IMG/VR virus record: IMGVR_UViG_3300022204_000183
DNA: 42,772 nt
Origin: a virus
Taxonomy: Duplodnaviria > Caudoviricetes
Reading direction: 5' to 3' (one strand)
Shown here: piece by piece, positions 4,042-21,407 of the stretch
Position numbering within the stretch: the stretch's first letter is position 1
Layout: each line of letters starts with the position of its first letter
Notes under the pieces: model-generated
The model's database searches: none
Told to the model about the DNA's origin: nothing
Seen by the model: only the letters and a program-made list of their open reading frames with translations
Position numbers and translations under genes: made by a program

Positions 4042-4066
4042 AGGGCATAACCGGGGGAGGAGCGAG

Positions 4067-5359: not shown

Positions 5360-5400
5360 TTATATCCACAAACAAAGGAAACAAAAATAGATAAAAAATA

Positions 5401-5734: not shown

Positions 5735-6418
5735 ATGAAAACTGGTGAAGGAAAAGCCAAAGGAAGTAACGGGAACGGGAACGGCGCAGGAGAGCGGCAG
5801 TCGCTCGGGCGCAATGCCATATCGGAATCGCCGGAGCTGGCGGAGGAGGTGCTGAGCCTGACGGGGGATATACAGTCCCTCATGCGCCGACTGATGACAA
5901 CAAAGAATAGCGAGTTGAAAAGCGCTGTCGAGGCGGAGAGAGCGAGGATCAAGGAGGACGCGGAGCGGATAGTCAACCGTTCGCCTGGTCTCTGCACGGC
6001 ATTCGCCGACCTGATAGGGAAATCCAAAACTCTTGTCTTGGGGAGCATGAGCCGTTTCACTCAGGCAATGCAGATGCAAGCGTCATGGATAGTTCCCCTC
6101 ACGCTCTTCTTTAAAGACACAACCCTGCTTGAAGGTATCGCCATGAGGTGCGGATATGGAATACACAAACTGCCGTCACCATCGGACGAGACGAAAGAGG
6201 GGCTGATGTTCCGCATGGGGAAATACGTCGGGGAGTCGGGAGTGCTCCTTCAAAAGATGTCGGACGCTCTTGAGGATGGAAAGATCACCGACGCGGAGAA
6301 GAGAGAACTGTATGCGGAGGGATGCGTGATAATCCGCCATCTCCTCGAGGTTTTGGAGAGCGTAAAGCTGATCGCCGAAAAGACCGAAGCGGCGCGAGTG
6401 CAGAAGGGGGAGGAGTAA
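5735..6418 (+). CDS. Phage regulatory protein, CII/CP76-like
   Basis: C-terminal ALEDGKITDAEKREL motif typical of the family; first gene of the early operon. Alternative start 5723. Confidence 0.65.
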   Translation: MKTGEGKAKGSNGNGNGAGERQSLGRNAISESPELAEEVLSLTGDIQSLMRRLMTTKNSELKSAVEAERARIKEDAERIVNRSPGLCTAFADLIGKSKTLVLGSMSRFTQAMQMQASWIVPLTLFFKDTTLLEGIAMRCGYGIHKLPSPSDETKEGLMFRMGKYVGESGVLLQKMSDALEDGKITDAEKRELYAEGCVIIRHLLEVLESVKLIAEKTEAARVQKGEE

Positions 6419-6420
6419 TC

Positions 6421-7125
6421 ATGGAGCGGATAAAGATATACGATCGTTTCAGGGGTGGAGTGATATACGAAGCAAGCGATAACGCCCGGACTATCAAGGA
6501 GGCGGTCGAAGAGGGGGTGGCAAGGGGGGTAAATCTAGCTGGCGCGGATCTGAAAGCCGCTAACCTAGAGGGAGCAGAGCTAAGTTACGCAAACCTTGCG
6601 GAAGCAAACCTGTCGATAGCGAACCTTAAGGGGGCGAAGCTATGGAAAGCGGACCTTCGGAAAGCTTCTCTAGAACAGGCGAATCTTGCGGATGTCGATC
6701 TTCGTTACGCGCACCTGTTCGGCGCATATCTTGGCGGGGCGAATCTTGTGAGAGCAAAACTTAATGGAGTTACTCTTGCGAGAGTCTACCTTCGGGGGGC
6801 GAATTTCGAGGGGGCGACGGGATATTCGGATTCGCTCGATGTGCTGATGGAACTCATCCGCCAGTTCCCGGTAACGACATTCAGCGAACCGGAATGGCGC
6901 GCGATAGGGATCATCGCCGTGCACAGTTTCAGCATTAATCGTATTCCTGATCTACCACTATATTTCGATAATGATCTCTATCCTGTATTTGAAAAGCTGG
7001 CAGAAAAAGGGTTCGGCGAATGGCTGTATCTATACAAAAAGAAACTGCAAGTACAAGTAATTGAAGTTGCCGGGGCGGTTGAGCGGTCCGGCGTGGGCAG
7101 TAACGTGACAGCATTGGAGGAATGA
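6421..7125 (+). CDS. Pentapeptide repeat protein
   Basis: Long A(N/D/K)Lxx pentapeptide array; RBS GGAGGAG before ATG 6421. Confidence 0.9.
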   Translation: MERIKIYDRFRGGVIYEASDNARTIKEAVEEGVARGVNLAGADLKAANLEGAELSYANLAEANLSIANLKGAKLWKADLRKASLEQANLADVDLRYAHLFGAYLGGANLVRAKLNGVTLARVYLRGANFEGATGYSDSLDVLMELIRQFPVTTFSEPEWRAIGIIAVHSFSINRIPDLPLYFDNDLYPVFEKLAEKGFGEWLYLYKKKLQVQVIEVAGAVERSGVGSNVTALEE

Positions 7126-7468
7126 ATGATGTCTCATCGTAACGGAGTGTCCGGCTAGGCCGGGCAGGTAACGCAATGGACGACGGACGGTCGACGATCC
7201 CTAATATATTAACCCTGCCATTGAGTGGGGTGGTGAAGCGACCGTCTGTCATTGATAACAGAGTATTAATAACGCCCTCCAAAGGGCCGGAGACGTCGGC
7301 TGGTAAACTCTCAATAATTCGTGGTGTTTTGGTTCAGATTTGTTTTCATTTTCTTACGGCTCTCCGGCCATTGTTTATAACGTGTTTCAGGGAAATCCCC
7401 CCTATGCAACTGGCCGGGAAGGTTGCCCCCATGCACCGACCCGGCCAGCTTTTTACCATCGGCTTGCC

Positions 7469-7496
7469 TGTCATCCTCGCGGATGCGGGGATCCAG
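7469..7496 (-). repeat. 28-bp palindromic repeat, copy 2 (inverted)
   Basis: TGTCATCCTCGC-GGAT-GCGGGGATCCAG on the + strand. Confidence 0.95.
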
Positions 7497-7519
7497 TCGC
7501 AGAGGCAACGGGGTGACGG

Positions 7520-7906
7520 ATGAGAAATGACCTTGAACATCAGCATCAGGTAGCCCTCATTAATTGGGCGTCGGCGCACGAGAATAAATATCCGGGTTTG
7601 CATCTGCTCCACGCGATACCGAACGGGGGGCACAGGAATAAGGCGACCGCCGGAAAGCTGAAAGCGGAAGGTGTGAAAGCAGGGTTTCCTGATCTTCTGC
7701 TCCCGGTACCGCGCGGGGAATATCACTCGCTCTATATAGAAATGAAAAAACCTGTCACGCGATCGAGCGGAAAGGGGAGCATCAGCAAGGCGCAGAGCAC
7801 GGTGATTGAAGAACTCCGGTCTTTCGGCAACGCGGTTGTCGTCTGTTACGGGTGGATAGAGGCATCCCAGGCGATCATTGATTATTACAAGGGGGCGGGG
7901 AGATGA
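7520..7906 (+). CDS. VRR-NUC domain nuclease
   Basis: HAIPNGG...LKAEGVKAGFPDL...LYIEMK PD-(D/E)xK pattern. Confidence 0.9.
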   Translation: MRNDLEHQHQVALINWASAHENKYPGLHLLHAIPNGGHRNKATAGKLKAEGVKAGFPDLLLPVPRGEYHSLYIEMKKPVTRSSGKGSISKAQSTVIEELRSFGNAVVVCYGWIEASQAIIDYYKGAGR

Positions 7907-8235
7907 GGCACAGCAGGGATAGTGTCGGCTTTGGGGACCCGCCATCCTCTTGGGAGCCGTATTACATGGACGAGGAGCTGATAGATATCGCGCACTGCGT
8001 CACATGCGCGCGAAAAGGTAAACAGGTGAAGGCGACAAACAGGTCGGGCTTATGCGCCGACTGCCTGTACGGGAAGAAGAAGCCGGAGCGGAAGAGGTGC
8101 GGGAAATGCCGGAGGCCGTTCATGGGGATGAAATCCCAGGACGACTGCCATCTCTGCACTCATGCTCGCCGTCATGCGTCGGCCCGGTCGGCAAAGAAGA
8201 GGTTCTTGGCGAACCACGCGGGGGCAAAAGGATGA
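7903..8235 (+). CDS. Hypothetical Cys-rich (Zn-binding) protein
   Basis: Four CxxC pairs; ATGA coupling to the upstream gene. Confidence 0.7.
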   Translation: MRHSRDSVGFGDPPSSWEPYYMDEELIDIAHCVTCARKGKQVKATNRSGLCADCLYGKKKPERKRCGKCRRPFMGMKSQDDCHLCTHARRHASARSAKKRFLANHAGAKG

Positions 8236-8477
8236 TAGCAGATATGTGGATGCTGGAAACAGGTATGCCGGGCAGATTGGATATTGCGGAGGTTGCTACC
8301 TCTTCGCGCGTGGTCACTCTTGGGAGGGCGATACCTAAGCTCGGCGAAAAGACGAAGCGGAAGATCATAGGAATAATGAAAGAGGCACTGGATCCCCGCG
8401 TACGCGAGGATGACAGGGGGGCGGGGAGGCCCAGCCCTTCCCGGTCGAATATTTTTGAAGAAAGGAAAGAGATATGA
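8232..8477 (+). CDS. Hypothetical protein carrying repeat-encoded LDPRVREDD
   Basis: ATGA overlaps at both ends. Confidence 0.6.
   Translation: MIADMWMLETGMPGRLDIAEVATSSRVVTLGRAIPKLGEKTKRKIIGIMKEALDPRVREDDRGAGRPSPSRSNIFEERKEI
8388..8415 (+). repeat. 28-bp palindromic repeat, copy 3
   Basis: CTGGATCCCCGC-GTAC-GCGAGGATGACA. Confidence 0.95.
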
Positions 8478-8785
8478 ATGGTGAACAGCAGTATCCCGGT
8501 ATGGCAGGCGAAATGGAAGAGAAGGGGTCCAGTATAATCGAGTCTGAACTGGTCCAACTGCGTGAAGTTGTTGATACCGGATTAAAAATGGTGGAGGAGT
8601 TGGAAAAAAAATTATTCTCGGTACTGTCCCCACGCAAAGGTATACCACTTCCGCCACCTCAAACAGAAAACAAAGATGTTGAAAGAAAATACTCTTTATT
8701 CACCGACCAAATAAGATCCTCAAGGAGAGGTGTTCACACAATACTAGAGAGGCTTAAAGGTCTCGCTTCACGGTTAGAGGTTTAA
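8474..8785 (+). CDS. Hypothetical protein (helical)
   Basis: 103-aa coupled ORF. Confidence 0.7.
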   Translation: MNGEQQYPGMAGEMEEKGSSIIESELVQLREVVDTGLKMVEELEKKLFSVLSPRKGIPLPPPQTENKDVERKYSLFTDQIRSSRRGVHTILERLKGLASRLEV

Positions 8786-8864
8786 CGATGAATTTCAACT
8801 GCGGGGATGACGTGGCGAACAGGCGGATGCGGGGCGGCTGACAGTTTCATAGGGAGGTAGAGGC

Positions 8865-8939
8865 ATGGACGAAATAGATTTGATGGTTTTGGTTTCATGG
8901 TTGTTTCTCATATTGGAGCTGGTGGTGCTGGCATGGTGA
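8865..8939 (+). CDS. 24-aa hydrophobic micropeptide (not in ORF track)
   Basis: MDEIDLMVLVSWLFLILELVVLAW after RBS GGGAGGT; stop overlaps the next ATG. Confidence 0.45.
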   Translation: MDEIDLMVLVSWLFLILELVVLAW

Positions 8940-9091
8940 CGGCGGAGCAGAAAAGGAAACTGGAAGTGCTGAAGAAAAAATGGAAAGCGGTCTGGAACTT
9001 GCCGGAGATAGTGCAGGGGTATGCGCTCTTCGGGATAGAGAAGGCCAGGCGGAGGGTAGTTGGCGAAATTGAGCGACGGGAACGGGCATAA
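8933..9091 (+). CDS. Hypothetical protein
   Basis: MVTAEQKRKLEV...; coupled to flanking ORFs. Confidence 0.5.
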   Translation: MVTAEQKRKLEVLKKKWKAVWNLPEIVQGYALFGIEKARRRVVGEIERRERA

Positions 9092-9341
9092 GTGCGCGAG
9101 TTGCAACGATACCGGGTGGATAGATGTTTATTTGCGATGCACGTTTTGCGGGTCGTGGGCGGAAAAATGCGAGAGGTTTCAGATGAAAGATAAAACAGAC
9201 GGAGCGGGGGAGCGGGTGAAGATCAGGGCGATTATAAACGGCGTATATGTAGCGGTTGATGGGCGGGAGTTTTCGCAACGGCTCGGCCAACTGGATAAAG
9301 ATGATTGTTTGTTCGTCCCCGCAAAGAAGGAGGAGGAGTGA
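9060..9341 (+). CDS. Hypothetical Cys-rich protein
   Basis: CASC...CTFC; stop overlaps the ATG at 9341. Confidence 0.55.
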   Translation: MAKLSDGNGHKCASCNDTGWIDVYLRCTFCGSWAEKCERFQMKDKTDGAGERVKIRAIINGVYVAVDGREFSQRLGQLDKDDCLFVPAKKEEE

Positions 9342-9565
9342 TGGGAGAAAAAGTAGATCATCCCTCTCATTACGGGGGCAAAGACAATCCATATGAGGCG
9401 ATAAAAGTGATCGAGGCATGGAGCCTCGGTTTCAACTTGGGAAATGCGATCAAGTATATTTCACGCGCAGGGAGGAAAGAGGGTTCGCCACCTCGTGAAG
9501 ATTTAAAAAAAGCGGCGGGGTACCTGGATCGCGAGATTAAAAAGCATGAAAGGACGGGGAAATGA
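9341..9565 (+). CDS. DUF3310-family protein
   Basis: VDHPSHY...EAIKVIE...FNLGNAIKYISRAG.K...EDLKKA signature. Confidence 0.88.
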   Translation: MGEKVDHPSHYGGKDNPYEAIKVIEAWSLGFNLGNAIKYISRAGRKEGSPPREDLKKAAGYLDREIKKHERTGK

Positions 9566-10266
9566 AATTCACAAAGCCATATTTTCTTATCGAAGATGAA
9601 ATAGACGGGTCAAAGATATTAAATAAATTGGAGCGTGCAGGGCGCACCTGCTACAAGAGCGAAGACCGTATAACCGAAGAATCATCGCCCAAGTTTGTTA
9701 AATCGATCCTCGACAGGGGGCATGAGTCGGTTATTGAACATGAATCCGTAAGTGTCCGAATAATATGTGACCGAGGTGTAACCCATGAAATTGTCCGGCA
9801 CAGGCTTGCCTCGTACTCACAGGAATCTACTAGATACTGCAATTATGGCAAGGCCGATGGTGTTACGTTTGTGATCCCGCCTTTTTTGAGGCAGTTGGAA
9901 ATAATAGAGCCGGGGGTGAATTACAAACTTGATGACATCATCCAGGTCTTTAAAGAAAGCGCCGTTGACCAAAAAGATGATGTGTCGATTGAATGGTTTG
10001 TGGCAATGGCACAAGCTGAAAAGACATATAACAATATGCTGGCACTGGGTATGAGTCCCCAGTATGCGCGTTCAGTTTTGCCAAACAGCTTGAAAACCGA
10101 AATCGTCATGTCATGTAACTTGCGCGAGTGGCGCCATTTTTTCAACCTTCGCACAGCAAAAGCGGCGCATCCTCAAATGCGGGAAATCGCCGTTCCACTG
10201 TTAAAGGAATTCCAGAATTTAATACCGATTATTTTTGACGATATTGAACCTTTTGAAGGTGAATGA
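9562..10266 (+). CDS. thyX: FAD-dependent thymidylate synthase
   Basis: RHRLASYSQESTRY ThyX motif, GHESVIEH, ARSVLPN, NLREWRHF. Confidence 0.96.
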   Translation: MKFTKPYFLIEDEIDGSKILNKLERAGRTCYKSEDRITEESSPKFVKSILDRGHESVIEHESVSVRIICDRGVTHEIVRHRLASYSQESTRYCNYGKADGVTFVIPPFLRQLEIIEPGVNYKLDDIIQVFKESAVDQKDDVSIEWFVAMAQAEKTYNNMLALGMSPQYARSVLPNSLKTEIVMSCNLREWRHFFNLRTAKAAHPQMREIAVPLLKEFQNLIPIIFDDIEPFEGE

Positions 10267-10406
10267 GGTTTGAAATGACGATTGAAATGAATCGTGTGAC
10301 GGTTGCGGAGCTGGAACGGATGCTCACGCACGGTTACTGGTACCCGGATGTCGGGATGTTCAGTTTGTCGAGCAGGTATCTGATTATCTTCAGCGGGGTG
10401 AATTGA
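10263..10406 (+). CDS. Small hypothetical protein (47 aa; not in ORF track)
   Basis: ATGA overlap with the thyX stop; fills the gap to 10417. Confidence 0.5.
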   Translation: MRFEMTIEMNRVTVAELERMLTHGYWYPDVGMFSLSSRYLIIFSGVN

Positions 10407-10416
10407 TGGGGGACGT

Positions 10417-10938
10417 GTGAAGCTCGGAACCAAGACGCTATTATTCGGTGTCCACCAGGTGGTCATTCATCCGCTGTTGGTGACTATCGCCTGGTGCAAG
10501 CTGTATAAATCGTTTCCTTCGTTCAAGGAGCTTGTCTGCATCATCATTCACGACTGGGGATACTGGGGTAAAGCGTCTCTCAAGTGCGAGGACGGCGATC
10601 GACATCCTGAACTGGGAGCAAAAATCGCCGGGAAGCTGTTCGGGCCGGAGTGGTCGGATTTCATTCTGGGTCATTCATCTTTTTATATTGTTCGACACCA
10701 TATCAAAAGGTCGAAGTTGCTGGCACCTGATAAATACTGGCACTGTTTCACGCCGTTTTGGTTTTATCGGTGGCTGTCTGTACCTACCGGGGAGATGAAA
10801 CATTATCGAGAGCTTGGACATGCCCGTCAGGTAGCGAGATTCGAAGCGAGTGATGAAGAATGGTACGAGGAATTGAAGAGAGCGTCACAGCAGAAGGTAG
10901 ACAACTGCTATCAGATAGATAAAGAAAGGCTGGCGTAA
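10417..10938 (+). CDS. HD-domain-like phosphohydrolase
   Basis: H...IIIHDWG...HPELGA...GHS...APDK spacing like the HD superfamily. Confidence 0.6.
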   Translation: MKLGTKTLLFGVHQVVIHPLLVTIAWCKLYKSFPSFKELVCIIIHDWGYWGKASLKCEDGDRHPELGAKIAGKLFGPEWSDFILGHSSFYIVRHHIKRSKLLAPDKYWHCFTPFWFYRWLSVPTGEMKHYRELGHARQVARFEASDEEWYEELKRASQQKVDNCYQIDKERLA

Positions 10939-12032
10939 TGGGAAACACAAAAATTGAATGGACGGATGCTACATGGAACCCGGTGACGGGGTGTACGAAG
11001 ATCTCGGAGGGTTGCAAGAACTGTTATGCGGAGCGGATGGCGACGACCCGGTTATCGAAAATGCCGTCGAGCGGATACAGCCCGGAGGATCCGTTTGCCG
11101 TGACGTTGCATTCTGAAAGGTTGAATGAGCCGTTGAAGTGGATGAAACCAAAGATGGTTTTCGTCTGCTCAATGGGGGATATCTTTCATGAAGATGTGCC
11201 GTTTGAGTTTATAGCCAGAATCTTTTCAGTAATGGCCTTGAATGAACGGCATATATTTCAGATTTTGACAAAACGACCAGAGCGTATGGCCGAGTTTTTG
11301 AAATGGGTAGAAGCTTGTTACGCCAGAATGTTTGAAAATGATGAAGGCTTGCGAGTTTTGCCGAACGTCTGGCTTGGTGTGACCGCTGAGAATCAGGAGC
11401 AGGCGGATAAAAGGATCCCGATTCTATTGGATATCCCAGCGGCAAAAAGGTTCGTGAGTATAGAGCCGATGCTGGGGGAGATAGACATAAAGCCGTATAT
11501 CGGGTTGCGTTCATTGAAATGTAAGTGTGGATACCACTCTGACGAAATGGATCTTGTTCCGCGCGGTCTCTCTAGGGGTAAGGAAAATTTAATCTGCCTT
11601 GAGTGTGGATATAGAGCAGAAGAAGGTCCGGTTCTCGACTGGGTGATATGCGGCGGGGAGACGGGGCAAAATGCCAGGCCGATGAATCCTGAATGGGCTC
11701 GTTCCGTTCGTGACCAGTGCAAGGAAGCCGGGGTTCCTTTTTTCTTTAAGCAGTGGGGGGAGTGGGGGCTAAATGAATGGACAAACGGGATGTTTCCCGC
11801 TCTTGAAGAGTATCGCGGAACGATGCGAGCATTCACCATTGTTGACCATTCGAACCGGACGGAAATAGGAAAAACAACGTATAACGTATTTCCCCTTGTT
11901 GGCAATAGCTATGAAACATTAACCCGGGTCGGCAAGAAGAAGGCCGGTTGTCTGCTTGATGGAGTTGAGCATAAGGAGTTTCCACTGGATCCCCGCCTTC
12001 GCGAGGATGACAAAGAGGGGGCGGGGAGATGA
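10938..12032 (+). CDS. Phage Gp37/Gp68 (DUF5131) family protein
   Basis: TKIEWTDATWNPVTGCTKISEGCKNCYAE, SMGDIFHE, LTKRPER, WVICGGETG, FFFKQWG; has a Zn-ribbon insert. Confidence 0.93.
   Translation: MGNTKIEWTDATWNPVTGCTKISEGCKNCYAERMATTRLSKMPSSGYSPEDPFAVTLHSERLNEPLKWMKPKMVFVCSMGDIFHEDVPFEFIARIFSVMALNERHIFQILTKRPERMAEFLKWVEACYARMFENDEGLRVLPNVWLGVTAENQEQADKRIPILLDIPAAKRFVSIEPMLGEIDIKPYIGLRSLKCKCGYHSDEMDLVPRGLSRGKENLICLECGYRAEEGPVLDWVICGGETGQNARPMNPEWARSVRDQCKEAGVPFFFKQWGEWGLNEWTNGMFPALEEYRGTMRAFTIVDHSNRTEIGKTTYNVFPLVGNSYETLTRVGKKKAGCLLDGVEHKEFPLDPRLREDDKEGAGR
11985..12012 (+). repeat. 28-bp palindromic repeat, copy 4
   Basis: CTGGATCCCCGC-CTTC-GCGAGGATGACA. Confidence 0.95.
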
Positions 12033-12241
12033 CATCTCTTGAGCGGTTTTTGCTTTACGGAATGGTGTATTTGTGGGTGCTTCGAGGCATGTTCGGTTTT
12101 GTTGAAAGTGACATGTTCATAGGCTTTGTGAAGGGCTACAGCGGTAAGACGCCGGTAGAACATGCCCAGCAATTCGGCGAGAAACACCGTCCTTGGTTTA
12201 AGCGTGTGTTTTTGTCAAACGACAAAGGGGAGGGGAGATAG
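12029..12241 (+). CDS. Hypothetical membrane protein
   Basis: N-terminal hydrophobic segment; ATGA coupling. Confidence 0.6.
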   Translation: MTSLERFLLYGMVYLWVLRGMFGFVESDMFIGFVKGYSGKTPVEHAQQFGEKHRPWFKRVFLSNDKGEGR

Positions 12242-12370
12242 GTGCACAGCTGTCCTGAATGCGGTCAGGCGTGTCGCTGCGCCGGTTTTAAGTCCGACCT
12301 CGGACCGGAATACGATGAGGAGTGCACCCACTGTCTTGATAGCGATGATGACGGGGAGATGGAAGGATGA
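12242..12370 (+). CDS. 42-aa Cys-rich microprotein (not in ORF track)
   Basis: GTG start directly after the upstream stop; MHSCPECGQACRC...CTHC; ATGA overlap with the next gene. Confidence 0.55.
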   Translation: MHSCPECGQACRCAGFKSDLGPEYDEECTHCLDSDDDGEMEG

Positions 12371-12540
12371 GTGAGCAGGAGAAATTCTACGCGTTCCTGA
12401 ATGAGATGTTGGAGGCGTTCAGGGTTGTCGGTGGTGTGTTCGCCGGTTTGTTTTTGGTTTTCGTGGCGCTGATCGTGTACTGGGGGAACGAAAGAAAAAT
12501 TAAAGTGCTCATTTCAAAAATAAGGATGAGGATTAAGTGA
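12367..12540 (+). CDS. 57-aa single-TM protein (not in ORF track)
   Basis: MSEQEKFYAF...VVGGVFAGLFLVFVALIVYW...; its TGA overlaps GTG 12537 and abuts ATG 12541. Confidence 0.6.
   Translation: MSEQEKFYAFLNEMLEAFRVVGGVFAGLFLVFVALIVYWGNERKIKVLISKIRMRIK
12406..12424 (+). repeat. 19-bp direct repeat, left copy
   Basis: ATGTTGGAGGCGTTCAGGG, identical at 13964-13982. Confidence 0.9.
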
Positions 12541-13781
12541 ATGGTAATAGTGCCGAGATCACTTGTATCGAGCTTTGCGCTGGATACTCTGGAATTTCCC
12601 TCGGACTTGAACGAGTTATCCCGGGTCTGCGCGTCGTCGCTTACAGCGAGATCGAAGGTTTCGCCTGCGTCAATCTGGGAGAAAAGATGGAACGCGGGTG
12701 GCTGGATCCGGCTCCTGTCTTCACGGATCTTAAAGAGTTCCCGGGCGAAGAGTTTCGTGACAAGGTACACCTCATCACTGGCGGATATCCGTGCCAGCCG
12801 TTCTCCGCTGCCGGAAAGCGGAAAGGGGAGGACGATCCGCGACATTTATGGCCTCACATTGCACGACTCATCAAGACAGTTCGGCCTGTTTGGGTGTTCC
12901 TTGAAAACGTCGAGGGACACGTTACGCTTGGACTCTCCACAGTTGTCAGCGACCTGGGAGAGTTGGGTTATCGAACAACGTGGGGACTATTCAGCGCGTC
13001 TGAAGTCGGCGCACCTCACGGACGGAAACGGGTCTTCATTCTTGGGGAACTGGCCGACGATATGCGCCGCTCAGAATCGGAACAGTCGAGGGGCAATAAT
13101 TCTCAAGGGGACAGCGCACCAAGATCACGGTTCGGCGCTGGGATTGGAGCAGGTGGTAGAGCTTGCCGAAGGGATATTGCCAAAGGAAATGACATCCCCG
13201 GAGGAGATACCAGCAGGGCGGAAGAATCTGTGGACGACGGCGGTGAAGCGAGAGATGTGGGCGACACCAAACACACTGGATCATTTACCGGAGAGAAGCC
13301 CGGAGGCGTTGCGGCGGCAATTCAATACAACAAGGATTGGGCGGACATCTCCGGCAAATCTTCGGGAACAGATGAACCCTGCAAATTATCCGAGGCAGAT
13401 GTACCCGACACCTACGGAGCAGGATGCGAAGAACAATGCCGGCCCTTCTCAATTCGAAAGGAACTCGCTCCCGCTGAATGCGTTTGTGACCGTTGGCCAG
13501 CAGGACCGGGAGAAGAGCAGTACGGATGGGAGCCGCCGCGAACCACCAAACCATTCGTCCGTATCGCAAACCGACATGGAGGCTTTATCGACGAAGCAAG
13601 AGAAGCGGAACAACAGGAAGCTGAATCCTCGATGGGTGGAGACGCTGATGGGTTTGCCGATTGGATGGTGCAGGCCGACAGCCGACAGGATGAACTGCGG
13701 ATGCTCGGAAACGGGGTCGTACCGGCAACGGCAGCGAGAGCGTGGACAGTTTTGTACGGTCGGATGAGGGAGGGGAGATAG
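12537..13781 (+). CDS. DNA cytosine-C5 methyltransferase, catalytic (alpha-like) frame
   Basis: Motif I LCAGYSG, IV GGYPCQPFS, VI ENV, VIII HGRKRVF, X LRMLGNGVVP; no recognisable motif IX in this frame. Confidence 0.92.
   Translation: MNGNSAEITCIELCAGYSGISLGLERVIPGLRVVAYSEIEGFACVNLGEKMERGWLDPAPVFTDLKEFPGEEFRDKVHLITGGYPCQPFSAAGKRKGEDDPRHLWPHIARLIKTVRPVWVFLENVEGHVTLGLSTVVSDLGELGYRTTWGLFSASEVGAPHGRKRVFILGELADDMRRSESEQSRGNNSQGDSAPRSRFGAGIGAGGRACRRDIAKGNDIPGGDTSRAEESVDDGGEARDVGDTKHTGSFTGEKPGGVAAAIQYNKDWADISGKSSGTDEPCKLSEADVPDTYGAGCEEQCRPFSIRKELAPAECVCDRWPAGPGEEQYGWEPPRTTKPFVRIANRHGGFIDEAREAEQQEAESSMGGDADGFADWMVQADSRQDELRMLGNGVVPATAARAWTVLYGRMREGR
12541..13767 (+). CDS. Overlapping +1-frame ORF, putative beta subunit of the methyltransferase
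   Basis: 408 open codons; WPT/WTT/WATP/YPTP repeats and KLNPRWVETLMGLPIGW (motif IX-like). Confidence 0.7.
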   Translation: MVIVPRSLVSSFALDTLEFPSDLNELSRVCASSLTARSKVSPASIWEKRWNAGGWIRLLSSRILKSSRAKSFVTRYTSSLADIRASRSPLPESGKGRTIRDIYGLTLHDSSRQFGLFGCSLKTSRDTLRLDSPQLSATWESWVIEQRGDYSARLKSAHLTDGNGSSFLGNWPTICAAQNRNSRGAIILKGTAHQDHGSALGLEQVVELAEGILPKEMTSPEEIPAGRKNLWTTAVKREMWATPNTLDHLPERSPEALRRQFNTTRIGRTSPANLREQMNPANYPRQMYPTPTEQDAKNNAGPSQFERNSLPLNAFVTVGQQDREKSSTDGSRREPPNHSSVSQTDMEALSTKQEKRNNRKLNPRWVETLMGLPIGWCRPTADRMNCGCSETGSYRQRQRERGQFCTVG

Positions 13782-13964
13782 ATGGGATTGCCGGGGACAT
13801 GCCCGCTGTGTGAAAAAGTATTCATGATGGAGCATCCGAAGGAGGTTTGCGACAAGTGCAAAGGGTTCAAGCCGCATCCGCCTGTTATTGCCGAACGGGG
13901 GGAGCATGTTTCATCCGTCGTGAAGAGGCGGAATAAATCGCCGGAGAAGCTATACGGGACTTAA
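13782..13964 (+). CDS. Small Zn-ribbon protein
   Basis: CPLC...CDKC; strong RBS. Confidence 0.65.
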   Translation: MGLPGTCPLCEKVFMMEHPKEVCDKCKGFKPHPPVIAERGEHVSSVVKRRNKSPEKLYGT

Positions 13965-13982
13965 TGTTGGAGGCGTTCAGGG
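13964..13982 (+). repeat. 19-bp direct repeat, right copy
   Basis: ATGTTGGAGGCGTTCAGGG. Confidence 0.9.
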
Positions 13983-14012
13983 CGATGAATGTTTTTAAAA
14001 AAAGGAGGATCT

Positions 14013-14378
14013 ATGGCAAATGAACAGGAAATAACGTTGGAGAATGTTGGCGGGGGGGTAGCGGCGGAGCTGTTCGCTATCGAACTGGAAAAGGTAGTGG
14101 CCAACATCGCTGACCCGAACATCGAGGCGGAAGGGGTGAGGGAGATTACCCTGAAAGTCCGCTTCAAGCCGGACAAACAGCGGAAGACATCGCCGGTGGA
14201 TATATCCGTATCGTCGAAACTCGCAGGGAGACGGGCGCATTCAGCGATGGCGTATTTCGGGAAGGACCAGACAGGGCGGCCTGTGGTTATAGGCTACAAC
14301 CCAAATCAGACGACGTTCAACTTCATGCCGGAAGGCGTATCAGCAATAAACGAAAAGAAGGAGGCGAAACATGCTTGA
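14013..14378 (+). CDS. Conserved phage protein (first of a commonly paired couple)
   Basis: LENVGGG...ELEKVVANIADPN...REITLK pattern; RBS AGGAGG. Confidence 0.7.
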   Translation: MANEQEITLENVGGGVAAELFAIELEKVVANIADPNIEAEGVREITLKVRFKPDKQRKTSPVDISVSSKLAGRRAHSAMAYFGKDQTGRPVVIGYNPNQTTFNFMPEGVSAINEKKEAKHA

Positions 14379-15096
14379 AGAAGCGATGACCTATTTTAGA
14401 AATCTGGTGCAGGAGGTAACGCCGGTCGAGGAGGTGGACGGGCGAAAATACAACAACAGCGGCGGATCGCTGAAACCAATCCTTGAACCTTTTCCCGGGG
14501 TGATGGGGTTTTCTACGTTGTCCGGTCTGGTAGCCTGGGCGAAAGAGCAGGTGATCGAGATTGAAAAAGAGGGGAAGAGGGAGAAAACCCCGCCTTATTT
14601 TGTAGTTGATAGTTTCTGGCGGGTCTCTTTTTATGGGCCGGTTTGCGGGGCGTTCAAGCAACGTCCATTGATAGCCGGAGCCGACCACGTCCACAAACCG
14701 TTCCCCTTTGGGCGGGAGCACGATACGGAGGAATTTATAATCGCCCTTCAGGCGAAGTTCATCATGGACGACAACTTGAGAACCTTGCTGAGCCTTGCCA
14801 GCCGTGTTGAGGACAAAACAATCATCGGTGCCGAGGATAATGGCATTTCGCAGACGGTCACCGCCAAGAAGAGCGTCGCGACAAGGGAGAATGTGACCCT
14901 GCCGAATCCGCTGATGCTGAAACCGTTCTCGACGTTCCCGGAGATAGATCCGCCAGCGAAACCGTATGTCATGCGAGTTAAGGCCGGCCTGAAGTGGGTG
15001 CTTTACGAGACGGACGATACCGCATGGGGAGTCGAGGCGACCAAGCGGACGGCGGCATGGATAACGGCGAACTCGGAATTCAAGGTTTACTCGTAA
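14371..15096 (+). CDS. Conserved phage protein (partner of 14013..14378)
   Basis: EEFIIALQAKF...DNGISQTVT.K...LPNP..LKPF.TFPEI pattern. Confidence 0.75.
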   Translation: MLEEAMTYFRNLVQEVTPVEEVDGRKYNNSGGSLKPILEPFPGVMGFSTLSGLVAWAKEQVIEIEKEGKREKTPPYFVVDSFWRVSFYGPVCGAFKQRPLIAGADHVHKPFPFGREHDTEEFIIALQAKFIMDDNLRTLLSLASRVEDKTIIGAEDNGISQTVTAKKSVATRENVTLPNPLMLKPFSTFPEIDPPAKPYVMRVKAGLKWVLYETDDTAWGVEATKRTAAWITANSEFKVYS

Positions 15097-15147
15097 AAAT
15101 GTTAAGCCAGGGGGGGCATGTTGCCCCCTCGAAAAAAGGAGAGAAAT

Positions 15148-15357
15148 ATGGAAGTCGTAGAAAACCGGAAGAGGCCGACAGAAAAAGCCAAGTTCAGTAT
15201 GCGAGATAACAGAGGGGTCGCCGTGATCGATTGTATCGAATGCGAAAGAGGGCGGCACGGGACAGAGGAGAAGTGTTCCAGTGGTCACCACCTTAAAAAA
15301 GGGCGGCAAGGGTGTTGCTGTTCAGGAACCTTGCTAAGCACCTTAACACTGGATTGA
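15148..15357 (+). CDS. Small Cys-rich protein
   Basis: CIEC...C...CCC; RBS AGGAG. Confidence 0.6.
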   Translation: MEVVENRKRPTEKAKFSMRDNRGVAVIDCIECERGRHGTEEKCSSGHHLKKGRQGCCCSGTLLSTLTLD

Positions 15358-15370
15358 AAGGGAAAAGCTA

Positions 15371-15398
15371 CTGGATCCCCGTCTGCACGGGGATGACA
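15371..15398 (+). repeat. 28-bp palindromic repeat, copy 5 (intergenic, compensatory changes)
   Basis: CTGGATCCCCGT-CTGC-ACGGGGATGACA, perfect stem. Confidence 0.92.
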
Positions 15399-15412
15399 GG
15401 AAGGGAGGATTA

Positions 15413-15655
15413 ATGGCTAGAAAGTATTTTTGTGACGTGTGCGATACCGAATACGAGGAAGGTTCTCATCTTGTAATAAACACAGGGGGGGATCGCAAGG
15501 ATATCAGGTTTTCTGATATATGCAGGGAATGCAGGGATACGATTATGGATGCCGTCGCGACGATCGTCAAAAACAAAATTCGGTCCAGCCACGGGATACC
15601 TGAGAAGGTAGATATCGAATCGCTTGAAAAGGATATCGAGATCGTATCCTCATAG
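15413..15655 (+). CDS. Small Zn-ribbon protein
   Basis: YFCDVC...DICREC; RBS GGGAGG. Confidence 0.75.
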   Translation: MARKYFCDVCDTEYEEGSHLVINTGGDRKDIRFSDICRECRDTIMDAVATIVKNKIRSSHGIPEKVDIESLEKDIEIVSS

Positions 15656-15683
15656 ACAATGAGCAACAGGGAGAGATGAGAGA

Positions 15684-16508
15684 TTGAAAAAGGAAGGACA
15701 GGCACCGGCGTTTCAGTTTTATCCGGGTGATTTTTTATCAAATCCGCAGATAACGCTGATGACACCGGAAGAGCGCGGGGGATATATAAACCTGATCTGC
15801 TACGCATGGCAGGACGGGGAGTGTTCGTTGCCGAACGACGAGACGCTATTGGCGCGACTGTCCGGTCTGGGTGAAGGGTGGTTGAAGGGGTGTTCAACCG
15901 CGATTATGAAAATGTTTGAAGTGGACCCGAACGACAAGACGAAAATCTTTTCAACTTGGCTTCGCGACGAGCGCGAAAAGCAGAGACGACACAGGGAGGC
16001 GAGCATACGCGGGGGGAAAAACTCCGTTAAATCAAGGGGATTGGCTCTCAAGGGTACTTCAACCGGGCAGGTTGAAGGGGCGTTGAACCCTTCTTCTTCA
16101 TCTTCTTCTTCATCTTCAGACTTCAGTCATAAAAAGAAAAATATAAAAAAGGAAAAAAGCATTAACCCGGATTTTGAGAAGTTTTACGAGCTGTATCCGC
16201 GCAAGGAGGCAAAAGCCCGGGCGCTAAAAGCATTCGAGCAGTTAAAGCCGGATGAAAAGTTGCTCGGCGTGATACTCACACGTCTGGAACTCCAAGTGAA
16301 CCGCTGGAGAGCCACCGGTACCGCGTCGGAATTTATCCCCTTGCCTGCAACGTGGCTGAACGGCGAGCGGTGGGAGGACGAGGTTACGAATAAATCCAAT
16401 TCTGGCGGGAAGAAGCCCGGCGTAAACGGAACAAACGGGGCGGGGCATCGCCAGGTGAGGCCGGAACCTGCCAAAGAGCGAGATAAGGCCGGAGCGTACG
16501 ATTTATGA
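15684..16508 (+). CDS. Replication initiator (YdaU/DUF1376-like N-terminus)
   Basis: PAFQFYPGDFL...EERGGYINL..; Ser-rich linker; FEKFYELYPRK...PATWLNGERWEDE C-terminal domain; followed by a helicase loader. Confidence 0.85.
   Translation: MKKEGQAPAFQFYPGDFLSNPQITLMTPEERGGYINLICYAWQDGECSLPNDETLLARLSGLGEGWLKGCSTAIMKMFEVDPNDKTKIFSTWLRDEREKQRRHREASIRGGKNSVKSRGLALKGTSTGQVEGALNPSSSSSSSSSDFSHKKKNIKKEKSINPDFEKFYELYPRKEAKARALKAFEQLKPDEKLLGVILTRLELQVNRWRATGTASEFIPLPATWLNGERWEDEVTNKSNSGGKKPGVNGTNGAGHRQVRPEPAKERDKAGAYDL
15871..16165. other. Putative replication origin (iteron-like repeats plus A-rich tract) inside the initiator gene
   Basis: GGTTGAAGGGGTGTTCAACC palindrome at 15880-15899; TCAA/TGAA(G/C) repeats at 16048, 16059, 16073 and 16084; A-rich tract at about 16130-16160. 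Confidence 0.55.
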
Positions 16509-17302
16509 AACATGTGGCAGATTACGTAAACCCGTTCCTCAAACGGTTCGAGGAGGTGCAGGCGCGCCACGAGGCGGAGCTGGCGAAGTGCAACCTTTCA
16601 TGCAGGGTTACCGTGCCGAGCGAGACCCTCAAGAGCGAAGAGCCTGAGATTTTGAAAACCGCGATCGAGGATATCAGGTTCTCGCACAAGGGAAGCTGTG
16701 CCGGAGTCGAGGCCGCTGTCGCTGAGATAGAGAAACGGCTTCGCTATCTGAAAAATACCCGGATGGCGGCGTATCTGAAGGCGCAGGGGTTCTCGGAGCG
16801 GGACATCAGAGCTGTCCTTTTCTCGCCGCTGAATACACTCTATCCCGCCTGGCAGGCTGTTGATAAATACATGCGGGGGGGGTACGAGGGGCGGAGTTAC
16901 GGGACGGGTGATTGTCTGATACTCGCCGGACCGCCCGACGCGGGGAAGACATTCGCGGCAGTGTGGGGGGCGGCGCAGATCCGCAAGGGGCAGAGGTATA
17001 TTTTCTGTTCCGATATCTCGCCCAAACTGCGACACGAGCAGGGGTTTCTGGAATGGATGAGCAAAGCGCCGTTTCTGGTGCTCGACGATTACAACGGAGC
17101 GGGGAGCGATCCGCATTTCAACGAGGCGCTGAAAACGGTCTTTCATCATCGCCATGCCGGCAAGTTGGCGACGATAGTGACGACGAACAAGAACATGGAG
17201 GATTTCAAGGCGAGCCTGCCGGAGGTGATATTGTCGCGCCTGTCGAAACGCCGGGGTGGCTGGGGCGTATTTGTAGAGGTTGCAGGAAAGGGGGGGGAGT
17301 GA
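16505..17302 (+). CDS. DnaC/IstB-like ATPase (helicase loader)
   Basis: Walker A GPPDAGKT, Walker B LVLDD, TIVTTN, ILSRL. Confidence 0.85.
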   Translation: MKHVADYVNPFLKRFEEVQARHEAELAKCNLSCRVTVPSETLKSEEPEILKTAIEDIRFSHKGSCAGVEAAVAEIEKRLRYLKNTRMAAYLKAQGFSERDIRAVLFSPLNTLYPAWQAVDKYMRGGYEGRSYGTGDCLILAGPPDAGKTFAAVWGAAQIRKGQRYIFCSDISPKLRHEQGFLEWMSKAPFLVLDDYNGAGSDPHFNEALKTVFHHRHAGKLATIVTTNKNMEDFKASLPEVILSRLSKRRGGWGVFVEVAGKGGE

Positions 17303-17967
17303 TGGTAATTGAAGACATGAAATATATTGAATGCCCTGCTTGTGATGGCAAAGGCAGTACCGGTCATATGTTTGCTTGTGGGCAAAGTTCAGAATGGGAA
17401 AATGTCGATCTTGGATGCAATCTTGTTTGGCATTTTTGCCCAATGTGCAAGGGGAGGAAGAAACTGCCTTCCGGTCGGGATGGGTGGAAGATAGCAGGTG
17501 CTAACATGAGAGAAATTCGAGAAAGCATAAAATACTTTGTCGGTTCTGAGAATGGGCGTTGGTGTTTATCCGGTGATGGCGGCGATGGTTATGAACGGCG
17601 AAATCTGACAGTAGGTGAAACGGCCGAATATCATGATATACCGGCCAAGGAATTGCACAAGATGGAGCTTGGGGGAATGGATCTCTCAAAAATTGCGAAA
17701 TTATATATGCCAATGTACCTCTGGGCCGTAGACAAATGCTCCGTCGAGGGATGCGAATTACCCGGAGACCGTCTCTGTGATTATCCGGTATCAGATGATA
17801 AGAGCTGTGATTTTATTGTTTGCGAAGATCATTCGATTGAAATCGGGGTGGATATCCACCTATGCCATGTTCATGTTGAGTTCTACAAAAAAGCAAATGA
17901 TGCTTCCGGTATGCAAACGACAAGTAAGCTGCTGGGGCATGAGATATCCAGAAAGAGGGGGGAGTGA
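17302..17967 (+). CDS. Hypothetical multi-Cys protein
   Basis: CPACDGKG...CPMCKG (DnaJ-type CxxCxGxG-like) plus a C-terminal Cys/His cluster. Confidence 0.7.
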   Translation: MVIEDMKYIECPACDGKGSTGHMFACGQSSEWENVDLGCNLVWHFCPMCKGRKKLPSGRDGWKIAGANMREIRESIKYFVGSENGRWCLSGDGGDGYERRNLTVGETAEYHDIPAKELHKMELGGMDLSKIAKLYMPMYLWAVDKCSVEGCELPGDRLCDYPVSDDKSCDFIVCEDHSIEIGVDIHLCHVHVEFYKKANDASGMQTTSKLLGHEISRKRGE

Positions 17968-18254
17968 TGAAGTACCGGTATATGATTTCGTTTCAGTGCC
18001 CCCGGGTAGACGGCTCCGACATAGTTTACCGATGCGCCGAGTTGACCGCTGAAAACCCTATTCTCAGGGTGGCAGATTTCCGAGAAGGGTTATCTCAACT
18101 ACATCCAGAACTTGATATCCCCCATTTTGTGCCGACGTATTTTGCTTTGCTGGAAAAAATCCCTAGTCGAGCCGAGAAGGTGGGCTATTACGTCTATTAT
18201 TGCATCGTGGTTATGTTGTTTCTGTGGTTGGTAATTCATTTGGGGGGGGAGTGA
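17967..18254 (+). CDS. Hypothetical protein, C-terminal TM
   Basis: Coupled ORF with a hydrophobic C-terminus. Confidence 0.65.
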   Translation: MKYRYMISFQCPRVDGSDIVYRCAELTAENPILRVADFREGLSQLHPELDIPHFVPTYFALLEKIPSRAEKVGYYVYYCIVVMLFLWLVIHLGGE

Positions 18255-18820
18255 TGAGTAAAATATATAAAGTAAGCGAATGCAATAGGTGTCCTGATTT
18301 TGTCCGTTGTCGGCATCTTAGGTGTCAGACAGGATTTAAAGTTGGCAGGATTCATCCTGATTGCCCCCTTCCCGATGATACCAGCGAGAGCGAAACTAAT
18401 AGTAGCAGTGAAGAAATTGTATCACTAAGAATGCAACTATCAAAGATGCGAATAGCGAACAAGGAAGAGACCGACCAACTGAAAGCACAGGTGGCAGTGT
18501 TGCATGATATAGCCTCTAGCCTGCTGGAAAAGGTAGAAGAAAATGAGATAAATAGCGACTATCTGATATATAACCGCAAAATTAACGAATTGCCTAAAAC
18601 TGCTATCGAATACATGGAAGAGTATCGGCGGCTAAAAGACGAGATAACAACTATGGCAGATCGCAATCGTGCTTTGATTAGTGTAGTGGATAAGATGGAA
18701 GAGGTGTTAAAAAATGTTCTTAGGCGTGTAGAACCTCACTCAATAATTAAGGGCGACGATTCTTATTCTTTGTCAATGGGCATTGCCCAGACAATAACGG
18801 AGGCATTGAAAGATGTATAG
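18254..18820 (+). CDS. Hypothetical protein (Cys motif plus coiled coil)
   Basis: CNRC...HPDCPLP followed by a heptad-rich region. Confidence 0.7.
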   Translation: MSKIYKVSECNRCPDFVRCRHLRCQTGFKVGRIHPDCPLPDDTSESETNSSSEEIVSLRMQLSKMRIANKEETDQLKAQVAVLHDIASSLLEKVEENEINSDYLIYNRKINELPKTAIEYMEEYRRLKDEITTMADRNRALISVVDKMEEVLKNVLRRVEPHSIIKGDDSYSLSMGIAQTITEALKDV

Positions 18821-19010
18821 GTCAAACCGTCACGAGTCCAGCGTCTGCTTAGCGTGTAAGCATGAAGATTTTAATGAGAATTTTAATCACGGTATCGCCG
18901 ATACGGGAGACTATAGTGTGAGCTGTCCCAAGTGTGACGCCGGTGAAACAATGATATCAGATATTGATTATTTGAGTTTCGGCCCGTTTGAGGTGGGGAG
19001 AAAGATATGA
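18813..19010 (+). CDS. Small Zn-ribbon protein
   Basis: CLAC...CPKC. Confidence 0.6.
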   Translation: MYRSNRHESSVCLACKHEDFNENFNHGIADTGDYSVSCPKCDAGETMISDIDYLSFGPFEVGRKI

Positions 19011-19303
19011 AAGGTAAGGCACCGGGGGGCGGGGCGTTCGAGGTGTTTTTATATACTGGTATGGTAGGTGCGTTGCTAGGCTCGGGGGAATTTCTAATGG
19101 CTATGATGATGTTCATGGTCTATCTCTATTTTCTCGCAAATATGATCGTTCAATCACTTAAACAGGCACTGGCTCCCCGCGTTCGCGAGGATGACAAGAA
19201 GGGTGAGGCATTGAACGCGCCTGATGGCGCACCACAGACTGAAGTCTATGCTACCAAAACGGGAAGCGGGGATGACAGGGCGGAAGGGATGCAGGATGGA
19301 TAA
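19007..19303 (+). CDS. Hypothetical membrane protein carrying repeat-encoded LAPRVREDD
   Basis: Two hydrophobic segments; ATGA coupling. Confidence 0.6.
   Translation: MKGKAPGGGAFEVFLYTGMVGALLGSGEFLMAMMMFMVYLYFLANMIVQSLKQALAPRVREDDKKGEALNAPDGAPQTEVYATKTGSGDDRAEGMQDG
19169..19196 (+). repeat. 28-bp palindromic repeat, copy 6 (a half copy GCGGGGATGACA lies at 19266-19277)
   Basis: CTGGCTCCCCGC-GTTC-GCGAGGATGACA. Confidence 0.92.
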
Positions 19304-19517
19304 AATAAAAATCGAAACTGATGGGCAGAGGACGAACATAACATACGGTGGAAAACCCGTGAAGCATATTACCAAAGCGGTGATTGAAATGACTCCCAGA
19401 ACCAAGACGCTCACATTGACGGTTGACGACCTTTTTGACCTGGATGCAGAGTTCCCGCCGGAGTTTTGCCGGATAGTGAAAGAGAAGACAGTTGAAATAA
19501 AGGGGGAAGGGGGATGA
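19296..19517 (+). CDS. Hypothetical protein
   Basis: MDKIKIETDG...; coupled ORF. Confidence 0.65.
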   Translation: MDKIKIETDGQRTNITYGGKPVKHITKAVIEMTPRTKTLTLTVDDLFDLDAEFPPEFCRIVKEKTVEIKGEGG

Positions 19518-19942
19518 GATGTGAGAACTGCGACGAGTACGACATAGAGCCTTTGGCATGTGATCCGACGGATCCATACTGTCACGGCGTGGATGACTAT
19601 CTGAAGAGAGAAGAAGCCGGAGAGGTTATTCCTGCGAGCGGCTGTCCGAAAAAAGCTGTGGAGGTAAAAGTAAAAACGACTCCACCGCCGGAAGGGCGGT
19701 ATTGCATCCGTGACACGATAGACCGGAGGGAGATATGCGAGAGGTATCTGTACAGCACCCATAGAGATGAAATATTTTGCGGCAAACCGCGTGACGGGAA
19801 GTATTTGGCGATTGAGCATGAAAAAACATTCGGTCGCCGTCCGCTCAAAATCAGGGAGTGTTTAGAGGAGACGACAAAGCAACTGGATCCCCGCGTTCGC
19901 GAGGATGACAAAGAGGGGGATAACGATGAACGGGGAGAATGA
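19514..19942 (+). CDS. Hypothetical Cys-rich protein ending in repeat-encoded LDPRVREDD
   Basis: MRCENC...C...C...CP; ATGA coupling. Confidence 0.65.
   Translation: MRCENCDEYDIEPLACDPTDPYCHGVDDYLKREEAGEVIPASGCPKKAVEVKVKTTPPPEGRYCIRDTIDRREICERYLYSTHRDEIFCGKPRDGKYLAIEHEKTFGRRPLKIRECLEETTKQLDPRVREDDKEGDNDERGE
19883..19910 (+). repeat. 28-bp palindromic repeat, copy 7
   Basis: CTGGATCCCCGC-GTTC-GCGAGGATGACA. Confidence 0.95.
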
Positions 19943-20138
19943 GCAGGTGCAGGGGGGGGCGGCGGAAGGGCGGAGATTTATCGGCGTGACCGCCGTGGCA
20001 AAGCGCTGGGATGTCTCCGAAAGCACTGTTCGCCGTCGCCTGGAAGAAGGGTATCTTCGCGCGCTCAAGGTGGGGCGGCTCTATAAAATACTGCTGTCAT
20101 CGGTTCACGAATACGAAAAGAACAACATGAACTGCTAG
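19926..20138 (+). CDS. Excisionase-like / MerR-type HTH DNA-binding protein
   Basis: VTAVAKRWDVSESTVRRRLEEGYLRALKVGRLYKI (HTH_17-like). Confidence 0.82.
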   Translation: MNGENEQVQGGAAEGRRFIGVTAVAKRWDVSESTVRRRLEEGYLRALKVGRLYKILLSSVHEYEKNNMNC

Positions 20139-20303
20139 TTTGCCCCTCCTCTGTTCCTTCTTTAGCATCTATAGCCCCGCAAGCGTCACAACGACCGCTA
20201 ATTAATTCAAATTCGTCATATCCTATAGCCAATTATAGCAACAGACATTAACCAGAGACCGGGAACTGCAAAATGAAATGATCAAACAACAGGGGTTACG
20301 AGG

Positions 20304-21397: not shown

Positions 21398-21407
21398 GGG
21401 AGAAGCG

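Follow-up and report, generated by a model that had tools for sequence, protein, structure and literature searches.

The virus record IMGVR_UViG_3300022204_000183 (Caudoviricetes), a stretch of 42,772 nucleotides (nt) referred to here in its entirety as the window, carries a putative DNA methyltransferase gene that is open in two reading frames at once. A sequence-only reading had described two same-strand open reading frames (ORFs) nested nearly end to end, the second of them stop-free for 408 codons, and the coordinates and lengths of the two frames, designated A and B (+1 relative to A), are as it claimed (Table 1). The two start codons are 4 nt apart. The GTG of A directly adjoins an in-frame TAA (12534-12536), and the ATG of B directly adjoins, in its own frame, the TGA (12538-12540) of an upstream gene encoding 57 amino acids (aa); the same reading had correctly noted that this stop overlaps the start of A and abuts that of B. 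The TAG of A adjoins the ATG of the next gene at 13782. In the host genome, which contains 826 stop-free stretches of at least 400 codons, the A/B pair is the only same-strand overlap of at least 300 codons (99th percentiles, 158 and 211 codons), indicating that the two-frame layout is more than chance.

Relatives of the gene were collected as 241 loci, one found with a single protein and the others in three scans, run with a 40-sequence alignment of A, each of which contributed its best 80 loci. Six loci in which the motif IV/VI pattern was missed were left out, giving 235. A classification by regular expressions found 168 of 242 loci conforming; this is an undercount caused by diverged motifs and truncated contigs, and the loci were therefore reclassified with profiles. 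Stop codons were scored in 50 of 51 representatives sharing less than 80% protein identity (one had codons that could not be translated), and start codons in 123 representatives whose GC content ranges from 0.34 to 0.68. A conventional restriction-modification (R-M) methyltransferase (L242), one of two plasmid matches annotated as ordinary NgoMIV-type R-M genes, served as a control.

Both frames are under selection, B under purifying selection along its whole length. Over 160 catalytic codons, no stop interrupts the +1 frame in 234 of the 235 loci; L144 alone differs, with both frames broken by a 1-nt shift in a G run. The avoidance of stops across homologs that the sequence-only reading had put forward as a test was thus observed in the catalytic half as well as in the repeat and motif IX part of B. 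The 50 representatives contain 2 stops in the +1 frame, compared with 122 expected from synonymous codon permutation and 385 from a GC-weighted null, and 363 in the +2 frame, which is stop-free in none of the 50 loci. The window itself has no +1 stop in its catalytic region (3.2 expected by codon permutation, in which 1.3% of shuffles are stop-free, and 9.7 by the GC-weighted null); the control has five over the same region.

Silent positions of A carry a second record of this selection. The third base of a fourfold-degenerate codon in A is the second codon position of B, and several such bases are nearly fixed at sites where the residue of B is conserved: the G of Ala154 in 123 of 124 sequences (Arg153 in B), and the third bases of Thr148 (76/76), Thr81 (72/72), Thr5 (71/71), Ala35 (96/98), Pro60 (110/120) and Gly144 (105/113). 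The third bases of other invariant residues of A (Pro85, Pro88, Pro106 and Ala402) are near 2 bits, so that the fixed silent sites are not explained by shared ancestry. A profile of the first 170 residues of B gave a +1-frame match in every one of the 235 loci, a signal that is partly forced by the conservation of A.

In the variable region downstream, the roles of the frames appear to be exchanged. Among 57 independent pairs, mismatches occur at a rate of 0.25 at the wobble position of B and of 0.07 and 0.08 at the other positions; the pairs are 88.5% identical in B and 71.8% in A, and all 1010 of 1010 shared segments are in frame. By these measures B behaves as the coding frame here and A as a relaxed linker. 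Frame A is nevertheless open from motif IV through the motif IX region in 172 of the 180 loci with motif IX in the +1 frame. For 118 representatives that were chosen as open, the expectation over this span is 507-921 stops; in the third frame there are 936. A conserved element of frame A (aa 320-335) lies within the variable region, implying that selection alternates between the frames.

Chain A has the features of a C5 cytosine DNA methyltransferase. It matches PF00145 over aa 9-181 (E 7e-37) and phrog_363 (E 6e-57), and its predicted model matches M.HaeIII and M.HhaI (E 6e-14). Motifs I, IV, VI, VIII and X, all of which had been read in frame A, were located (Table 1), including the Pro-Cys of motif IV and the ENV of motif VI; motif IX is absent. 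The model is of high confidence in the catalytic domain, which has the large-domain, Rossmann-type fold, and in the motif X helix, and has predicted local distance difference test (pLDDT) scores below 50 across most of aa 192-317. The middle 200 or so residues of A had been regarded as shadow translation. That description suits about aa 175-317, which are unconserved and of low confidence, but not aa 320-335, which read W-P-x-x-P-G-x-x-Q-x-x-W-E-P-P-R and of which many columns are invariant, or almost so, across the 40 aligned sequences. By profile, this element is in frame A in 132 of the 235 loci and in any frame in 135. It could contribute to target recognition.

Chain B matches phrog_1008, a family labelled DNA methyltransferase (E 9e-23), and no Pfam or NCBIfam model. 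Among 38 B-like proteins, none matched NCBIfam and one, in which motif X is fused, gave a weak match to PF00145. The ESM Atlas returned only unnamed clusters, with a recognition value under the Atlas threshold. The N-terminal 170 residues contain predicted helices and are likely to form a docking or scaffold region; one of the helices (aa 133-161) is long and confidently predicted and carries the conserved residues W139, V143, R147 and R153. The stretch that overlies the middle of A had been described as containing four repeat units. Four W/Y-x-T motifs are indeed present (aa 171, 231, 240 and 288), but they belong to three full modules and a remnant of nine residues. Among the relatives, B contains 0-8 W-x-T-P modules with a median length of 38 aa; the 576 module units form 150 clusters, and a given type is found at differing positions in the array. 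Exchangeable modules thus stand in tandem between motifs VIII and IX, in frame B. The last module lies a median of 42 aa before the motif IX-like segment, and the TL motif of known recognition domains is 10-50 aa before motif IX (PMC2413257). By analogy, the W-x-T-P modules likely act as target-recognition domains. The segment at aa 359-376 resembles motif IX in position, in conservation and in a weak alignment to M.HhaI obtained with a single-frame relative, L223, whose corresponding segment also aligns weakly with PF00145 positions 273-318 (E 0.013). In a group of alphaproteobacterial loci (L093, L095, L101 and similar ones), B carries one module only, longer and of a different kind, and motif IX is diverged; the +1 frame is fully open there nonetheless.

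Table 1. Features of the two-frame gene and its surroundings in the window.
Feature	Position	Strand	Comment
Upstream 57-aa ORF	12367..12540	+	Hydrophobic stretch; Pfam match below threshold only; in frame with B; TGA overlaps GTG of A and abuts ATG of B
Shine-Dalgarno-like purine-rich stretch	12522..12532	+	4-10 nt before GTG of A, 8 nt before ATG of B
Frame A	12537..13781	+	414 aa; start GTG, stop TAG; putative catalytic (alpha-like) chain, C5 cytosine methyltransferase
Frame B (+1)	12541..13767	+	408 aa; start ATG, stop TGA; wholly inside A; putative partner (beta-like) chain
A motif I (S-adenosylmethionine binding)	12570..12596	+	Ser at aa 18; Gly in 94% of relatives
A motif IV, catalytic Pro-Cys (Cys86)	12780..12806	+	Invariant in 124/124 aligned sequences
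A motif VI (ENV)	12897..12911	+	Alignment
A motif VIII (R-x-R)	13017..13037	+	Alignment
A-frame conserved W-P...W-E-P-P-R element	13494..13541	+	Inside variable region; pLDDT near 80 (aa 321-330)
A motif X and C-terminal helix	13689..13754	+	Alignment, model
B N-terminal region, aa 1-170	12541..13050	+	Overprinted on motifs I-VIII of A; predicted helices
B module 1 (W-P-T-I...)	13051..13230	+	60 aa; close match in P0126
B module remnant (W-T-T-A...)	13231..13257	+	9 residues
B module 3 (W-A-T-P-N...)	13258..13401	+	Widespread type: 24-member cluster, array positions 1-4
B module 4 (Y-P-T-P-T...)	13402..13493	+	Similar in P0125 and Paenibacillus phage Diva internal gene; end approximate
B motif IX-like segment, aa 359-376	13615..13668	+	Nearly invariant in 124 sequences
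Prophage context	1..42772	.	Integrase, repressor, CII-like, replication, lysis, head and tail genes (PHROGs and Pfam scans of selected ORFs)

The start codons of the two frames are paired throughout the family. In all 123 representatives the start of A lies within -4 to +11 nt of that of B, at +2 (94 loci), +5 (17), -4 (8), +8 (3) or +11 (1). The GTG at +2 follows automatically from the Met-Trp with which B opens, and it was dropped as independent evidence for a start of A. In the 29 loci where it is not forced, frame A has ATG (20 loci) or GTG (1) at the Trp codon, and the other eight have an A start at -4. The window belongs to the last arrangement, the Trp codon having been lost. This pattern suggests that both starts are maintained, as would be predicted for two co-initiated chains. 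The Shine-Dalgarno-like stretch of the window likely serves both starts. A similar motif is found upstream in 77 of 123 relatives, compared with 38 of 122 and 40 of 123 where control windows were placed upstream and 83 of 123 in one in-gene window, so that the enrichment is only suggestive. The sequence-only reading had proposed that both chains could be translationally coupled to the upstream gene; what the family has in common is the nesting of the starts, which is not tied to this particular upstream stop.

The arrangement seen in the window, with the N-terminal region of B and the motif IX-like segment in the +1 frame and motif X in frame A, was found by profiles in 194 of the 235 loci. 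Of the remainder, 29 gave no match to motif IX or X (many are short contigs), five have both motifs in the +1 frame, three have both in frame A, and four show other shifts. In L223 (1983-3137), L172 and L083, motif IX is in frame A, giving a chain with motifs I-VIII, IX and X, and B is still open from its start and contains modules; frame A of L083 is interrupted. These loci suggest that the N-terminal half of B and the modules are needed in their own right. In L070, L210, L214 and L218, A stops early and the +1 frame runs through the modules, motif IX and motif X, a split like that of M.AquI. The modules and both motifs are also in the +1 frame in the Gordonia phages GordTnk2 (L247) and Upyo (L252), the +1 ORF of Upyo comprising 421 codons and extending over two annotated genes. 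Variants that move motif IX into A or motif X into B imply that the pieces belong to one enzyme. In mycobacteriophage ShiLan (gp70; L246, 1986-3155), the modules and motifs IX and X are all in the main frame, and a 153-codon +1 ORF with two more modules overlaps motifs IV-VIII. Motifs IX and X can accordingly sit on either chain, with the catalytic core and the modules usually split between frames.

Some loci carry insertions or are broken. In L061 (1146-1700), and also in L094 and L172, a +1-frame ORF with a putative HNH-endonuclease-like motif follows just after motif IX, and frame A reads through it to motif X. An out-of-frame HNH insertion is described in a different phage methylase (PMC11855218); the two cases are alike, except that the gene was already dual-coded here. 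Broken copies include L137, which has a transposase-like insertion, presumably of the IS110 type, and L144, L098 and L158, which have single-base shifts.

Thirteen annotated records were translated, among them the conventional control and one, Alfacinha3, that was unsuited to the test. A full-length B with motif X in A was found in two of the 13 (C75C1 and Synechococcus phage Yong-M2-251), in neither of which B is annotated. Six of the 13 contain an internal +1 ORF with modules and motif IX (Diva, yong1, Lc-Nu, Rhynn and two Bacillus/Paenibacillus plasmids), and two of the 13, GordTnk2 and Upyo, have the +1 layout given above, leaving ShiLan gp70 with its main-frame layout. It had been predicted that annotation pipelines would miss frame B. 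It is true that usually only one frame is recorded, but B is often called as a hypothetical protein (in 575 of 1225 candidates), and one record, that of Diva, names the internal gene (DIVA_50, 'g49 internal gene'). A profile of B matched 43,992 cluster representatives at E 0.001, 29,307 at 1e-10 and 5,312 at 1e-30, the weaker of which will probably include internal-type chains and fragments. Search patterns for the family matched an estimated 4,400, 1,300 and 8,400 stretches in three collections, including some other layouts. The two-frame layout therefore appears to belong to a very large phage family and not to this locus alone.

The window is, by its gene content, a temperate prophage, with the methyltransferase gene in the early/replication arm. 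No restriction endonuclease was found among the scanned neighbours (DUF5131, ThyX, some of the small ORFs and phrog_997); the cognate endonuclease gene that would stand alongside in a type II R-M system was thus not seen there. Just upstream (9305-12032) are genes for DUF3310, a flavin-dependent thymidylate synthase (Thy1) and a DUF5131 protein with an apparent insertion, which together look like a small nucleotide-metabolism cluster. Elsewhere in the window, a 351-codon ORF (16912-17967, + strand) overlaps the last 130 codons of a DnaC-like gene (16505-17302) on the same strand; its N-terminal part may be shadow translation. Among the sequencing runs listed as containing this DNA, none was of RNA; the single run with all of it may be its own source and showed no differences, another had a small share, and neither is counted as evidence. 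The host genome also encodes a second, distant C5 methyltransferase (G000 C67:190157-190720) with 27% identity to A over 194 columns and no match to chain B.

We consider it about 80% probable that this temperate prophage gene encodes an orphan methyltransferase of two co-initiated chains, resembling M.EcoHK31I, fully overprinted, and with likely recognition modules that are shuffled in B. A and B would be translated from nested starts behind one ribosome-binding region and would come together as a single orphan C5 cytosine DNA methyltransferase, in which A would bind S-adenosylmethionine and provide the catalytic cysteine. The middle 140 or so residues of A form a relaxed, predicted-disordered linker, kept stop-free to hold the motif X helix attached. 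Chain B would provide the small domain, made up of motif IX and an array of modules of about 38 residues that are gained, lost and reordered in steps preserving both frames, and its N-terminal half likely docks on A. By analogy with orphan phage methyltransferases, the probable role is to shield phage DNA against the restriction enzymes of the host, perhaps at several different sequences. The two-chain interpretation leans on M.EcoHK31I, in which beta, encoded in a different frame of alpha, bears motif IX and is indispensable: silent removal of the Met codons of beta abolished methylation (PMC2836561), and alpha has motifs I-VIII and X where beta has motif IX (PMC2836561, PMC3404938). A bolder version, in which the B family, among the largest of the uncharacterised phage protein families, would be the hidden specificity subunit of a two-chain multispecific methyltransferase, each 38-residue cassette setting one target and being swapped between phages, with interlocked starts and a docking half overprinted on the catalytic domain, is tentative and in our estimate falls a little short of even odds.

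Besides the start codons forced by Met-Trp, several observations weigh against the two-chain reading. B alone folds poorly (pLDDT 55, predicted template modelling score 0.23), its model has no Foldseek match, and PDB sequence searches with B and with a profile of B gave no matches. The alignment of the L223 segment with M.HhaI 271-313 (conditional E 0.006) is short of significance, and the motif IX-like segment of the window has no Pfam match of its own. The Thr of the modules is followed by I, L or V in only 37 of 410 cases and by Pro in 313; the TL motif P-T-(I/L/V) is accordingly not found in every module, module 1 of the window being one that does have P-T-I. For M.EcoHK31I, published work puts the predicted recognition domain in alpha and not in beta (PMC2836561, PMC3404938). 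The loci were ranked by likeness to A, so that the sample favours the clade of the window, and the 123 representatives were picked by the N-terminal W-x-x-P motif of B, which is present in 162 of 167 conforming relatives after length and completeness filters. Finally, L223 and L172 keep B although motif IX is in A, and B may therefore have an added role; and the copy in the window is off consensus in motif I (Ser18), in motif VIII (Gly162), in B (Val2 in place of Trp) and in its remnant module, and could be impaired.

Some of these points fit other explanations. It is unlikely, though of the alternatives the least so, that B is real but stands apart from catalysis as a regulator, an inhibitor or a DNA-binding protein, with A active alone or with another partner. 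The persistence of B where motif IX has moved into A, together with the lack of a confident fold for B alone, makes an independent role possible, and the poor fit of the modules to the TL consensus and the lack of a structural match point the same way. However, A has neither motif IX nor a folded small domain, which C5 enzymes use for recognition (PMC3404938), and in ShiLan gp70 the modules and motifs IX and X lie within the catalytic frame. That this copy is a decaying, inactive prophage gene in a family whose layout is real is a good deal less probable. The off-consensus residues and the remnant module would agree with decay, but each frame is uninterrupted for over 400 codons, no catalytic residue is missing, the loss of the start at +2 is compensated by a GTG at -4, residues other than Gly occur at aa 18 in other relatives too, and the prophage gene set looks complete.

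Programmed frameshifting, the alternative that the sequence-only reading had itself raised, is disfavoured and slightly less likely than a separate role for B. A single chain would start in A, shift to +1 after motif VIII to enter the modules and motif IX, and return for motif X. The order of the motifs on the DNA (I-VIII, modules, IX, X) is collinear with such a chain, and one shift would be enough where motifs IX and X are both in the +1 frame, as in L070, L210, L214, L218, GordTnk2 and Upyo. In the window, however, two opposite shifts would be required, and a simple scan of the locus for slippery motifs gave one candidate, at 13650, inside motif IX. Frameshifting also leaves unexplained the separate start of B, its stop-free and conserved first 170 codons and the open linker of A, and the beta chain of M.EcoHK31I is initiated separately (PMC2836561). 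There remains the idea that B is a shadow ORF open by chance or a product of misassembly, to which we give almost no weight. Off-frame translations of conserved genes look conserved, and language-model scores for them can be high; but the avoidance of stops, the fixed silent sites and the wobble pattern refute a shadow, the R-M control fails to keep its +1 frame open, and the layout is common to hundreds of independent assemblies.

If the two-chain reading is true, it would assign a role to a large protein family that is without annotation, one in which a two-frame layout is the rule rather than the exception. It would also explain the many phage 'DNA methyltransferases' that seem to be without a recognition domain, and why a clone of a single annotated ORF might be inactive. 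On the bolder version, the family would represent a cassette-programmable anti-restriction system in a second frame, with the recognition domain of an EcoHK31I-type enzyme moved from alpha to beta. If the modules set specificity, their 150 clusters are a natural library of recognition domains for mapping anti-restriction and for methylation tools. The genes are in addition a natural system for studies of overprinting and paired initiation, and the cultured phages C75C1 and Yong-M2-251 carry the full-length form, making the reading directly testable. Prokaryotic DNA offers few documented examples of same-strand overlaps longer than 400 codons in which selection alternates between the two frames. 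In the full-text literature, with most subscription journals and REBASE outside its scope, no account of full-length, co-initiated two-frame phage methyltransferases was found, nor any description of such enzymes beyond M.EcoHK31I and M.AquI, and both results are provisional; the available parts of PMC2884959 and PMC6070908 contain nothing on two-frame methylases.

Set beside the published description of M.EcoHK31I (E. coli HK31, YGGCCR), the gene in the window is similar in having its second chain fully enclosed by the first, on the same strand and in a different frame, with motifs I-VIII and X on the first chain and motif IX, or a segment like it, on the second. Unlike the beta chain of M.EcoHK31I, which is smaller and internal, B is as long as A (median B/A ratio of 0.97 in 123 loci) and starts where A starts. 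The chains of M.EcoHK31I are 309 and 176 aa long, and the enzyme belongs to an R-M system, whereas the gene studied here is an orphan in a prophage. The variable, recognition-like material, in addition, appears to be selected in B. Since neither a recognition domain on alpha nor a small beta (B has 408 aa and A 414) was found, the gene would be a variant and not a plain member of the EcoHK31I type. M.AquI (CYCGRG) has motifs I-VIII on one chain, and some of the variable region, plus motif IX, on the other (PMC3404938). The gene in the window shares with it the separation of motifs I-VIII from motif IX, or here the segment like it, but motif X is on the small chain of M.AquI and on A here, so that motifs IX and X are not together on the second chain. 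An AquI-like split in overlapping frames is seen in L070, L210, L214, L218 and the two Gordonia phages.

The recognition domains of Bacillus phage methyltransferases are about 38 aa long. Such enzymes (SPR, phi3T, rho11 and H2) have tandem recognition domains that confer several specificities (PMC8936443, PMC2413257). Like these, the gene in the window would encode an orphan phage enzyme with tandem exchangeable domains between motifs VIII and IX; unlike these, which are single chains in one frame with T-(I/L/V), it has its modules in a second frame and mostly with T-P. The genes of Diva, yong1 (Bacillus), Lc-Nu (Lactobacillus) and Rhynn (Mycobacterium) are similar to that of the window in having a +1 ORF with W/L-x-T-P modules and a motif IX-like segment, with motif X in the main frame; their records state no function. 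Their +1 ORFs comprise 161-236 codons, open at codon 13-64 of the main gene and have stops before that point, whereas in the clade of the window the +1 ORF is extended to the very start of the gene.

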